Shown here: positions 6,056 through 14,730 of the stretch, one piece after another
How the letters are laid out: each line of letters begins with the position of its first letter
Position numbering within the stretch: position 1 is the first letter of the stretch
NCBI GenBank assembly: GCA_964508365.1
Contig: CAZDTP010000047.1
Span: 1 to 28,387 of the forward strand
DNA: 28,387 nucleotides
Direction of reading: 5' to 3'
From: an uncultured archaeon
GTDB lineage: Archaea > Asgardarchaeota > Lokiarchaeia > Sigyniarchaeales > SOKP01
Program-made: the position numbers and the translations under genes
The notes under the pieces: generated by a model
The model's input: the letters and a program-made list of their open reading frames with translations, nothing else
Told to the model about the DNA's origin: nothing
Database searches by the model: none

Positions 6056-7096
6056 TTAGTTTACATATTTTTCCTCAAATATTTTTCTTAGTTTTTCAGA
6101 TTCCCTTAATAAGTCTAAAGTAATTTTTGCATGATTTTTAGTATACCCATTGCCTATAATCATTGTTACATCCTTTCCTATTCCTTCAGCTCCCAAAGCG
6201 GCTTTTGTAAAACTTGTAGCCATTGAAAAGAAATACACAATGCCTTTATCTTTCACTGGGAGAATTGAAGATAATTCCGAATTAGGTATGCTTAAACAAT
6301 TGATGGCTATATCCACTTCTCTTCCATCGTTAATTTTAAGAGTTTCGTCTAAAACATTTGTGGGATTTAATACATCTGCGATAATAATTTGGTGACAAAA
6401 TTTGGATTCTCTAAGAAATTCGGCTCTCAATTCATTTCTTGCTTGTCCTATTACCTTTCCATCGGTTCCCACCATTTTTTTAGCCATATATGAACACATA
6501 AGTCCCGATTTTCCCGTAGCACCAAGAATTAGAACTGTATCACCTTCTTTCACGAGATTTTTTACTTGTGCTGGAGCTCCAGCAACATCAAGTGCCGCTA
6601 ATGCTAATGTATCTTCCATATCTGCGGGTAATTTAGCATAAATACCACTTTCAAAAAGGATGGCCTTTCCCTCGATCTCTACTCGATCGATATCAGGATT
6701 AATATTTAAAATTCTTTCAATTTTAAGAGGGGTTAATGAGAGAGAAACTAGTGATGCGATTTTATCTCCTACTTTTAAATCTATCTTATCCAGCAGGTCA
6801 TTACCAATCTTCTCTACTTTTCCAATAAGCATGCCACCTGAACCAGTAACTGGATTTTGCATTTTACCCCGTTCATGTACAATCTCCAAGATTTTAGTCT
6901 TTATTTTTTCTATGTCTCCCCCCGCTTCTTCTTTTAATTGATTAAAACTTGCAGAATCAATATTCAAATAATCAACATCAATTAAAATCTCATTATCGAA
7001 TATAGTCATATCATTTGATATTTTAAACGCTGGTTGAGGAAGTGTTCCCTTAGGCTCAATTACCCTATGCGTTCCATACTTATTTCCTTTTACCAT
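6056..7096 (-). CDS. kdd: L-erythro-3,5-diaminohexanoate dehydrogenase
   Basis: KGNKYGTHRVIEPKGTLPQPA, LNIDSASF, GKMQNPVTGSGGML, ASLVSLSLTPL, LDVAGAPAQ, FFSMATSF and IIGNGY are hallmark Kdd motifs. Confidence 0.95.
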   Translation of the reverse strand: MVKGNKYGTHRVIEPKGTLPQPAFKISNDMTIFDNEILIDVDYLNIDSASFNQLKEEAGGDIEKIKTKILEIVHERGKMQNPVTGSGGMLIGKVEKIGNDLLDKIDLKVGDKIASLVSLSLTPLKIERILNINPDIDRVEIEGKAILFESGIYAKLPADMEDTLALAALDVAGAPAQVKNLVKEGDTVLILGATGKSGLMCSYMAKKMVGTDGKVIGQARNELRAEFLRESKFCHQIIIADVLNPTNVLDETLKINDGREVDIAINCLSIPNSELSSILPVKDKGIVYFFSMATSFTKAALGAEGIGKDVTMIIGNGYTKNHAKITLDLLRESEKLRKIFEEKYVN

Positions 7097-7280
7097 ATGA
7101 CATTCTCCATCTATTTCTTCGAGGATTATTATTATAGAATTTAAACTAACTTAAGAATCGTTAGAATTATAATTTTTTCAAAATAGCTAATCTGAATTGA
7201 AAATTAGTAGTAAAATTATAATTCGACGAGGATTCATAATAAACAAAGATGATAAGAAATAACTTAAAACTGTCTAATGC

Positions 7281-7293
7281 AAAACTTTTTTAG
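7281..7293 (+). promoter_or_regulatory. candidate BRE/TATA element for the his leader transcript
   Basis: AAAACTTTTTTAG lies about 85 nt upstream of ATG 7376. The region is AT-rich, so specificity is low. Confidence 0.25.
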
Positions 7294-7375
7294 TTTACAG
7301 TGCATAGGATACTTAATAGAATAAATGTTAGCTAGTTTAGCTATCTCTAGAATAAAAACTCAATAGTGAATTGAT

Positions 7376-7522
7376 ATGGCTTTTCTAAAAAGGGAAGGAG
7401 TTAATCTATTGAGTTTAATCTTTGTTGATGGGTCAAATAACACTATTGTTATTAGATCGGATGATGTTAAGAATTTTCCTTTACTTTTTTCACATCTACA
7501 TCATCATCTACATCATAAATAA
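7376..7522 (+). CDS. putative His leader peptide (HisL-like uORF), 48 aa from ATG 7376 or 37 aa from TTG 7409
   Basis: MAFLKREGVNLLSLIFVDGSNNTIVIRSDDVKNFPLLFSHLHHHLHHK*. Six CAT His codons fall in eight codons (7493-7516) just before the TAA. AAGGAG (7395-7400) is 8 nt before TTG 7409. The stop is 86 nt upstream of hisIE. Confidence 0.75.
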   Translation: MAFLKREGVNLLSLIFVDGSNNTIVIRSDDVKNFPLLFSHLHHHLHHK

Positions 7523-7603
7523 TTCTGATGAATTAGGGTAGAATACTTACTCGAATATTCATTGGAATTGAATCGAACTGAAATCTAATTCAGTTTTGGG
7601 GGT
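7501..7603 (+). promoter_or_regulatory. putative attenuator with alternative RNA helices
   Basis: 7501-7506/7526-7531 (TCATCA/TGATGA); 7529-7537/7584-7592 (8 WC + 1 GU); 7575-7582/7589-7596 hairpin followed by TTTT and then the GGGGGT RBS of hisIE. The last two helices share 7589-7592 and are mutually exclusive. Confidence 0.6.
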
Positions 7604-7608
7604 ATTTT

Positions 7609-8541
7609 ATGTTAATATTAAAAGTTGAAATGAAGGATATAGAATTGCTGGGAGGAATTAATCAGTTTATTAAAGAGGTATTTTTAAAACGGAATTGGGA
7701 TGTTTTTTTAACTTTAGTCCTAAAAGTCAATAAGCAAGATTTCGATAGACTGAACATGAATAATAATAATTTGAAAGAAATTTCTCAGAATCTAGATATA
7801 AGATTTGAAATAGGTGAAGGTCAGAATGAGATGAAAAAGCTGGTATATAAAAGAGGTTATAAAACCATTACTCTATCTTCACCTAACCGTTATGAAATCA
7901 TCAATTTTAATTCAAAAATAAATTATTCGTTAGTAGACGATAATTTGCTTTACATTCTCGATTTTGATAAAGGGCAAGGACTAATTCCGACAATAGTACA
8001 AGATCAGAGCGATACCGTTTTAATGCTTGCATACTCTTCTAAAGAATCATTAAAACAAACAATAAACACTCGGAAGGCAACTTATTTCAGTAGATCAAGA
8101 AATAAACTATGGTTAAAGGGAGAGGAATCTGGAAATTGTCAAACCGTAAAAAAAATTTTATTTGACTGCGATAATGATTCTCTCCTGTTTAAAGTTGAAC
8201 AAACCGGATATGCTTGCCACACAGGAACATATTCTTGTTTTTCTGATGGAGAATTTTCATTAAGCATTCTCTATGATTTAATCAACAACCGAATAGAGAA
8301 TTTTACAGTATCAGATTCTTATACTAAGAAGCTGGCGGAAGATAGTAAATTATTACTTTCAAAAATCAAGGAGGAAAGCTTAGAAGTGATAAATTTCACA
8401 GATAGAGAGAATCTTGTCTGGGAAATTGCTGACTTAACATATTTTATCTTAGTTTTAATGGCTAAAAAAGGAATAAAACTTCAAGATATTTTAAATGAAT
8501 TATGGAGTAGAAGAAATTATGGCGGCAAAAAACAAAAATGA
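7609..8541 (+). CDS. hisIE: bifunctional phosphoribosyl-AMP cyclohydrolase / phosphoribosyl-ATP pyrophosphohydrolase with an N-terminal extension of about 115 aa
   Basis: HisI motifs [34 protein letters not shown] and [10 protein letters not shown]; HisE motifs SYTKKL, KIKEE and [12 protein letters not shown]. Confidence 0.93.
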
Positions 8542-13227: not shown

Positions 13228-14730
13228 ATTAAAACTGTCATTCCTGCAATTGATATTCGAAAAGGAAAGGTTATAAGACTCACTCAAGGAGATTTTTCAA
13301 GGCAAACTATTTATTCTAACGATCCTGAAGCCATTCTAGGACAATTTATAGAAGCTGGCGCTTTATGGGTGCATGTTGTTAATTTAGATGGAGCGTTAAA
13401 CGGCAACTTTCGGGAAAGTCTTAGCTATCCTGCTATTTTGAATCTTATTACTCTATCAAAACGAGCTGGAGTCAAAATTCAAATTGGTGGGGGAATACGG
13501 AACATTGAAATCATCGAGGAATTGATAAACAGAGGAACAGACCGAATAATCTTAGGTACAATTGCGCTAGACGATAACAAGATTATAGATATCTTGTCTA
13601 AACAATATAGAAACACAATTGCGATCGCATTGGATTCCTCCAATAGAACGATCCGTACTGAGGGATGGCAATTTGATTCGTACTTAGATATTTTTAAGAT
13701 TTTATCTAAATTGGAGAACTTGGGAATCCAAGATTTTATTGTTACAGATATAATGAAAGATGGTACTTCGACTGGGTTAAATACAGATCTTTTTTTAGAA
13801 TTAAAGGAGAAAAAAAAGCCAAACACTAGAATAATTGCATCAGGTGGAGTTTCGAGCATAATGGATATAGAAAAAGCATTAGTGTTTGCCGATGGAGTTA
13901 TTGTAGGAAAAGCGTTATATGATGGGAGCATTTCTCACAGGGATTTTGGTTCTTTTCTCGATAATTTACATAAATCTCAATTGGTAAGACGAATTATCCC
14001 TTGTCTTGATGTAAAAAATGGAAGAGTTGTTAAGGGGATTAAGTTCAAAAACTTACGAGACAGTGGAGACCCAGTTGAGCTAGCACGTTATTACAACGAA
14101 AACGGTGCTGATGAATTAGTGTTCTTAGATATTTCGGCAACCATAGAAGGACGAAAAAGTATGCTTAGTACAATTCGATCTGTAGCTGAAGAAGTATACA
14201 TTCCATTTACCGTTGGTGGTGGTATTAAAACAATTGAGGATATGACTGAAATTATCAAAGCCGGAGCTGAAAAGGTAAGCATAAATTCGGCCGCAATAAA
14301 TGATCCAAACTTAATTACTGAGGGGGCTAAAAAATTTGGATCTCAATGCATTGTTGTCGCTATCGACGCAAAAAGAAAAGGAAAATCATGGGAAGTGTAT
14401 TCTCACAGCGGTACGAAACCTACTGGTCTCGATTTATTAGAGTGGGTAAAACTAACTGTAGATAAGGGTGCTGGCGAACTTTTAGTTACTAGCATGGATA
14501 GAGATGGTACTAACTCGGGATACGATCTTGATCTGATTCGAGCCATAACAGATATTGTGTCTGTACCTGTTATCGCATCGGGAGGAGCTGGAAATAAACA
14601 ACATTTTCTCGAAGCAATCAATGATGGAGCTGAAGCGGTGCTTGCTGCTTCATTATTTCATTATAATCTTTTAAAAATACAGGATTTGAAAGAGTTTTTG
14701 AAGGATCGTAATGTTTTGGTAAGATTGTAA
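13228..14730 (+). CDS. hisAF: HisA-HisF fusion (ProFAR isomerase plus IGP synthase cyclase subunit), probable ATT start
   Basis: The HisA N-terminus (IKTVIPAIDIRKGKVIRLTQG) lies upstream of the track start 13369 in the same frame. There is no ATG/GTG/TTG between the in-frame stop at 13198-13200 and 13369. GGGTGA (13215-13220) is 7 nt before ATT 13228. The HisF half has RRIIPCLDVKNGRVVKG, ELVFLDISA, TSMDRDGT and ASLFH. Confidence 0.9.
   Translation: MKTVIPAIDIRKGKVIRLTQGDFSRQTIYSNDPEAILGQFIEAGALWVHVVNLDGALNGNFRESLSYPAILNLITLSKRAGVKIQIGGGIRNIEIIEELINRGTDRIILGTIALDDNKIIDILSKQYRNTIAIALDSSNRTIRTEGWQFDSYLDIFKILSKLENLGIQDFIVTDIMKDGTSTGLNTDLFLELKEKKKPNTRIIASGGVSSIMDIEKALVFADGVIVGKALYDGSISHRDFGSFLDNLHKSQLVRRIIPCLDVKNGRVVKGIKFKNLRDSGDPVELARYYNENGADELVFLDISATIEGRKSMLSTIRSVAEEVYIPFTVGGGIKTIEDMTEIIKAGAEKVSINSAAINDPNLITEGAKKFGSQCIVVAIDAKRKGKSWEVYSHSGTKPTGLDLLEWVKLTVDKGAGELLVTSMDRDGTNSGYDLDLIRAITDIVSVPVIASGGAGNKQHFLEAINDGAEAVLAASLFHYNLLKIQDLKEFLKDRNVLVRL

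Follow-up and report, generated by a model that had tools for sequence, protein, structure and literature searches.

The window analysed here is a stretch of 28,387 nucleotides from an uncultured archaeon of the Sigyniarchaeales (Asgardarchaeota, Lokiarchaeia; assembly GCA_964508365.1, contig CAZDTP010000047.1, positions 1 to 28,387 of the forward strand). It carries a histidine biosynthesis operon that is directly preceded by a short open reading frame (ORF) with a run of His codons near its end, here called the leader, and the features of this region are collected in Table 1. After the leader the genes follow in the order hisIE, hisG, hisD, hisC, hisB, hisH and a hisA/F fusion, and the operon extends to position 14730. 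The fusion is a single ORF at 13369-14730 with two His_biosynth stretches, corresponding to hisA and hisF. The additional N-terminal domain of hisIE (7609-7950) is conserved and has no Pfam family. AlphaFold gave a confident (beta-alpha)4 fold for this domain (pLDDT 86.7), and a fold search with it against the PDB returned no clear match. Within the genus, the domain of about 110 amino acids and the leader co-occur in the same genomes, and a longer form of the domain is present in the genomes G007 and G093.

Table 1. Features upstream of and at the start of the his operon, with positions in the window.
Feature	Position	Strand	Description
Promoter-like block	7283-7293	+	AACTTTTTTAG (BRE/TATA-like), followed by conserved GTGCATA; conserved in the alignment
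Stem S0	7358-7366 with 7406-7414	+	ACTCAATAG with CTATTGAGT; 39-nt loop encloses the leader ribosome-binding box and ATG
Leader ORF	7376-7522	+	48 codons, ending SHLHHHLHHK before the stop; translation MAFLKREGVNLLSLIFVDGSNNTIVIRSDDVKNFPLLFSHLHHHLHHK
Hairpin A:B	7460-7467 with 7498-7505	+	GATGATGT with ACATCATC; 3' arm is the first His cluster
His codons of the leader	7493-7495, 7499-7507, 7511-7516	+	all CAT
Hairpin H1	7521-7533 with 7557-7569	+	begins at the second base of the leader stop; loop variable
Hairpin H2	7575-7582 with 7589-7596	+	-6.9 kcal/mol; abuts the hisIE ribosome-binding site
T4 tract, ribosome-binding site and start of hisIE	7594-7611	+	T4 7594-7597; GGGGG 7598-7602; 6-nt spacer; ATG 7609
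hisIE	7609-8541	+	first operon gene, with an extra N-terminal domain of about 110 aa (Pfam, NCBIfam)

The earlier note on this DNA had placed it in an Asgard archaeon, and this is borne out by the genome, which encodes TBP, six or seven true actins (best 429 bits) and Snf7. No 16S rRNA gene was found in the 4.07 Mb assembly, and ARAGORN detected 14 tRNAs altogether in it, with no tRNA-His among those 14. The assembly is rated 100% complete and no chorismate-binding TrpE gene was found in it, which suggests that the tryptophan pathway is missing.

The His-rich ORF, its start and its promoter-like block

A His-rich ORF shortly before hisIE had also been described in the earlier note, and its translation, its coordinates and its rarity in the genome all confirm this. 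The leader stop codon occupies 7520-7522, leaving a gap of 86 nt to the hisIE ATG at 7609. His makes up six of the eight codons in the stretch HLHHHLHH, and the His cluster at 7493-7516 contains a tandem 12-nt repeat consisting of two copies of CATCTACATCAT. His accounts for 1.6% of the codons genome-wide, at a genomic GC content of 31.8%. When all six frames of the genome were scanned, only four windows with at least six His per eight codons were found, and the three others are antisense within long ORFs. Among approximately 38,000 short intergenic frames of the genome, the leader is the only one with more than four His in eight codons. Chance in an AT-rich genome does not account for the His run.

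Both starts that had been considered plausible, ATG 7376 and TTG 7409 with AAGGAG at 7395-7400, are present, and comparison with related sequences favours the former. ATG 7376 is conserved and has a GTGA/GGGA/GGTA box 5-6 nt on its 5' side, whereas the AAGGAG ahead of TTG 7409 is unconserved and TTG 7409 itself sits in the 3' arm of S0. Judging from this conservation, translation of the leader likely starts at ATG 7376. The transcription start is predicted at about 7310-7320, downstream of the promoter-like block. Boxes of the form RACTTTTTTA, which resemble this block, are also found upstream of other genes in the genome.

The genome was also scanned for other leaders with runs of cognate codons, and none held up. 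A Trp-run ORF on contig C17 precedes a GFO/IDH oxidoreductase gene, further Trp runs are found ahead of Cdc6, methylmalonyl-CoA mutase and FrhB-like genes, and an Arg run is followed by a CCG-domain gene. Five Leu codons in a row (FLLLLLNS before the stop; contig C6, about 1310-1400) lie before the only isopropylmalate/citramalate-synthase-like gene. This run is located upstream of a conserved promoter-like block and only the closest relatives retain it, so it is probably a chance TTA repeat.

Distribution and conservation of the leader

In total, 21 distinct leader sequences were recovered, which come from two genera within a single family. As all comparative counts given here come from this single family of related genomes, they are not independent of each other. 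The His-run ORF was found directly upstream in all eight same-genus genomes that have this form of hisIE (eight of the 42 genomes searched have the form), and a metagenome search made with the hisIE N-terminal domain alone returned 10 loci, each of them with the leader. A covariance model built on the stretch from the His codons to the ATG gave one match per genome in 15 of the 150 genomes of the order. These 15 genomes, eight from this genus and seven from a second one, all belong to the same family, and no matches were obtained in the 22 other genera sampled in this order-wide set. The element was located directly 5' of hisIE in all 14 of the 15 matches for which the surroundings were inspected. 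A scan of the genome contigs with a sequence pattern returned mostly unrelated Collinsella palindromes.

The tails of the 21 leaders contain 4-6 His and include HLHHHLHHK, HHHLHYK, HHWLHH, HHWHYHL, HHCQHHY and NHIMHHFPTHK. His is found 0-2 codons from the leader stop in 20 of the 21 sequences. The exception is G007, in which the last His lies five codons ahead of the stop, so that a ribosome stalled there would barely reach H1. The distance from the leader stop to the hisIE ATG is 75-87 nt across the 21 sequences, and leader length among the relatives ranges from 37 to 63 codons, depending on the start used. Synonymous exchanges are observed for His (CAT/CAC) as well as for Leu (CTA/CTG/TTA/TTG), and the indels of 9 and 33 nt are all in frame. 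As a check of its proposal, the earlier note had suggested a search for conserved runs of His codons that vary synonymously between orthologous leaders, and this check turned out positive, in the 8 + 7 genomes as well as in the 10 metagenome loci. Relatives also differ by an in-frame loss of 9 nt in the His cluster, and such losses within the tandem repeat suggest that the number of His codons (4-6) changes via repeat slippage.

The remainder of the peptide is less constrained. Codons 1-38 have a pN/pS of 0.5-0.9 in the close group, compared to 0.3-0.45 in the adjacent hisIE domain, and the N-terminal parts are unrelated in G024, G007 and G093. In the same close group, synonymous change is lower in the leader than in the neighbouring hisIE gene. 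Only seven database proteins resemble the leader peptide, every one of them from close relatives, and the copy of one relative has been deposited as 'hypothetical protein HWN81_19870 [Candidatus Lokiarchaeota archaeon]'. Taken together, the synonymous His changes, the in-frame indels, the drifting N-terminus and the depressed synonymous change point to selection that targets the His codons and the RNA rather than a folded peptide. As far as the alignments indicate, this conservation pattern is the signature of a codon-sensing leader and not of a folded protein.

Hairpins, ribosome placement and termination

Four conserved hairpins with compensatory changes, S0, A:B, H1 and H2, were identified in the RNA. 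For S0, 95.5% of the cells in the alignment of 17 sequences are paired, with changes on both sides at two pairs, while slid controls gave 27-50%. Hairpin A:B is 89.8% paired and appears in the single-sequence folds of all 17 sequences, with differing flanking pairs. H1 starts at the stop codon in every sequence, is 97% paired over 21 sequences and shows changes on both sides at five of its 13 pairs. H2 is 94% paired over the same number of sequences, three of which show a G-C to A-U compensation. The pairing values of H1 and H2 were matched by none of 500 shuffles, and slid controls were 18-56% paired. The second His cluster (7511-7516) lies outside any stem and is still kept.

A T6 run, a length that marks terminators in this genome, sits at 7485-7490 within the leader ORF, in the loop of A:B and 3 nt 5' of the first His codon. 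The run is T6-T7 in the closest relatives and T4-T5 in others, and it is missing from some.

The effect of a translating ribosome was modelled by folding the 17 sequences with a ribosome footprint placed at the third-last His, the last His or the stop codon, an approach that addresses equilibrium only. A footprint on the last His or on the stop removed H1, and this held across nearly all sequences. In these models, loss of H1 is the one structural outcome of stalling that nearly all sequences have in common. H2 was kept in the whole-leader folds of 16 of the 17 sequences at any ribosome position, G007 being the one without H2. In folds of the nascent RNA of eight close relatives, H2 had a probability of 0.84-0.99 in 55 of the 56 states computed, with a value of 0.38 in the remaining one (L153). 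Equilibrium folding and covariation revealed no conserved antiterminator. The candidate pairing of 7529-7537 with 7584-7592, which has nine pairs here and is 81% paired in the 17 sequences, does not exceed shuffles in covariation and disappears in distant members.

The native terminators of this genome are runs of T5-7 or longer with no preceding hairpin and resemble canonical archaeal oligo-T tracts. T runs just 3' of stop codons are enriched about 11-fold for T6 and about 40-fold or more for T7, and within 20 nt past stop codons there are 202 runs of at least seven T, vs 2-5 inside gene ends. H2, with its -6.9 kcal/mol, is followed by T4 or T3 only (T3 in seven sequences, the G054/G102 group), unlike the native terminators, and a consensus terminator scan found none between the leader and hisIE. 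Set against these native T runs, H2 looks like a poor terminator.

The unpaired probability of the hisIE ribosome-binding site and AUG was about that of shuffled leaders and did not shift consistently when a ribosome was placed, and the folding gave no sequestration of the hisIE start as known from ermC. A cmscan search of positions 6900-7900 gave no match to the Rfam family His_leader (RF00514) at E-values up to 10, with two chance-level matches to unrelated families, and no match to a T-box fold with a specifier codon. Several other pairings were considered and rejected. The pairing named D:E comprises merely 4 bp. Pairing of the last His codon and AAA with the hisIE AUG, and pairing between the two start regions, are both at noise-level energy and unconserved, and an anti-RBS UUUCC in the A:B loop is also unconserved. 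Furthermore, hisIE is not reached by a +1 frameshift, as the +1 frame stops after 6-8 codons within the H1 loop.

A candidate His-sensing leader and its alternatives

We consider the ORF to be probably a cis-acting leader that senses charged tRNA-His. The explanation that we regard as the best for the region as a whole, and that we favour with slightly more reserve, is that a ribosome stalled on this His-sensing leader holds H1 open. The promoter-like box at 7283-7293 would drive transcription of leader and operon as one unit, with translation of the leader beginning at ATG 7376. When His-tRNA is scarce, the ribosome would wait on the last His codons (7511-7516), and its leading edge, about 12-15 nt ahead, would cover the outer 6-9 pairs of H1, which would leave H1 open. 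When histidine is plentiful, the ribosome would finish at the UAA and depart, and H1 would close. The weakest step is that open H1 would have to raise his expression by a route other than a bacterial hairpin terminator. The route that we favour would involve the translation of hisIE or the fate of the mRNA, for example if about 45 nt of AU-rich RNA upstream of H2 and the ribosome-binding site became a single-stranded landing site. Against the H1 model, H2 and the access to the hisIE start are predicted by the folding to be unchanged by the ribosome, and a length of 37-63 codons is long for a leader peptide.

With regard to the evolution and the output of this stalled-ribosome model, it is quite conceivable that the leader is a stalling gauge evolved in this Asgard family, in which opening of H1 would switch the operon on via ribosome loading by H2, mRNA fate or factor-dependent termination, and would do so without a terminator/antiterminator pair and without masking of the start. 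An output at the level of translation or mRNA can be proposed only tentatively, and premature termination at H2 and its T4 tract seems unlikely; between these two, we infer that the former is the more likely.

The main alternative would be classical attenuation, in which H2 and the T tract form an intrinsic terminator, a ribosome waiting on the His codons frees 7529-7537 to pair with 7584-7592, and a ribosome at the stop covers this segment so that H2 forms and transcription ends. The geometry fits, since the antiterminator helix would have nine pairs and is largely paired in the 17 sequences, H2 is a conserved hairpin followed by T, and S0 could limit translation of the leader to the first, co-transcriptional ribosome. 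However, the antiterminator covaries no more than shuffles and is absent in distant members, and H2 forms in nearly all nascent-RNA states and whole-leader folds. In addition, the tract of T4/T3 after H2 differs from the hairpin-free terminators of T5-7 or more that this genome uses, and there was no match to His_leader in Rfam. We consequently regard this alternative as unlikely. The ribosome-dependent attenuation proposed in the earlier note is supported as far as the cognate-codon leader is concerned, by the conserved His runs; the bacterial terminator/antiterminator arrangement found no such support.

Two further explanations dispense with codon sensing. The region could act as RNA only, with S0, A:B, H1 and H2 serving in processing, stability or protein binding and with the ORF as a by-product, as the His codons would be, because CAUCAU complements AUGAUG. 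Such an element would account for the strong constraint on nucleotides, with synonymous change in the leader below that of the neighbouring gene, for the covariation in all four stems and for the 3' arm of A:B being the first His cluster. It is nevertheless improbable, as the second His cluster is retained outside of any stem, His is preserved through changes of CAT to CAC, the frame stays intact through the 9-nt and 33-nt indels, and distant members retain the His codons amid differing sequence; the element has also been seen only ahead of his genes. Still less probable is that the ORF encodes a small His-tailed protein that acts independently, for example in metal binding, and only shares a transcript with the operon. 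The closest relatives retain the block LLSLxFVDGSNxxxVIRSDDV and one copy carries a public annotation as a hypothetical protein, as would be the case for such a protein, but the pN/pS of 0.5-0.9, the unrelated N-terminal part in three of the genomes and the seven database matches, all close relatives, argue against it, and the conserved peptide blocks coincide with arms of the RNA stems.

In bacteria, the sensing of charged tRNA through leader peptides is textbook knowledge, and it requires the coupling of transcription to translation. The proposed His-sensing leader resembles the enterobacterial hisL (RF00514), trpL, leuL, thrL, pheL and ilvL in that cognate codons form a run close to the end of a short ORF in the 5' leader and conserved hairpins lie downstream, and it shares with hisL the presumed sensing by ribosome stalling on scarce charged tRNA. 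It differs from hisL in its archaeal host, in the lack of a sequence or structure match to RF00514 and in its length, as hisL has 16 codons. Moreover, the His codons of hisL lie in the first segment, whereas here they lie in a 3' arm and a linker, no conserved antiterminator is present, and the last hairpin is AU-rich with T3-T4 in a genome with hairpin-free termination. Similar to the translational attenuation of ermC, cat and cmlA, an arrested leader ribosome would remodel the adjacent downstream hairpin, and the regulated gene has its own ribosome-binding site nearby. In those systems, however, the second hairpin hides the ribosome-binding site and the start, and the stall signal is a drug, whereas here GGGGG and AUG are outside H2 and the signal would be a codon run. 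The sensing codons right at the stop, with a parked ribosome that would cover the stop-adjacent RNA, are also reminiscent of E. coli tnaC with Rho, and archaea have a Rho-like termination factor, FttA/aCPSF1. Unlike in tnaC, no factor-loading site is known here and the expected sign of the regulation is not obvious. A full-text literature search found no paper describing a leader-peptide attenuator in archaea; a methods paper states that uORFs act in archaea, and gives no case.

As to the origin of the leader, the divergent neighbour gene is the same in four sister genomes (G011, G001, G002 and G014), and the intergenic region is shared over its first 150 nt, AAAACTT..GTGCAT included. Their hisIE has a different N-terminal domain of about 200 amino acids, and there is no leader. 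The locus without a leader in these sisters and the missing likeness to the Rfam His_leader suggest that the leader arose, or was lost, within the family and was not brought in by a bacterial operon. The earlier note had left open whether the leader was acquired with the operon or evolved in place, and the sisters, which share the locus and the promoter block, lead us to favour evolution within the lineage over arrival with the operon. In these leader-less sisters (loci L007-L010) the block AAAACTTATAT..GTGCAT is located only about 20 nt before the hisIE ATG, which would point to a leaderless or almost leaderless mRNA in these genomes.

A conserved and covarying case of this kind among the closest archaeal relatives of eukaryotes would demonstrate that the principle of leader-peptide sensing crosses domains. 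Because sister genomes have the same locus without the leader, it would also show that such a gauge can arise anew in one family. Since archaeal polymerases stop at T runs and not at hairpin terminators, the output coupled to the gauge may be a different one. With its approximately 330 nt, the element would be a compact and mutable test object for the interplay of ribosome and RNA polymerase in archaea.
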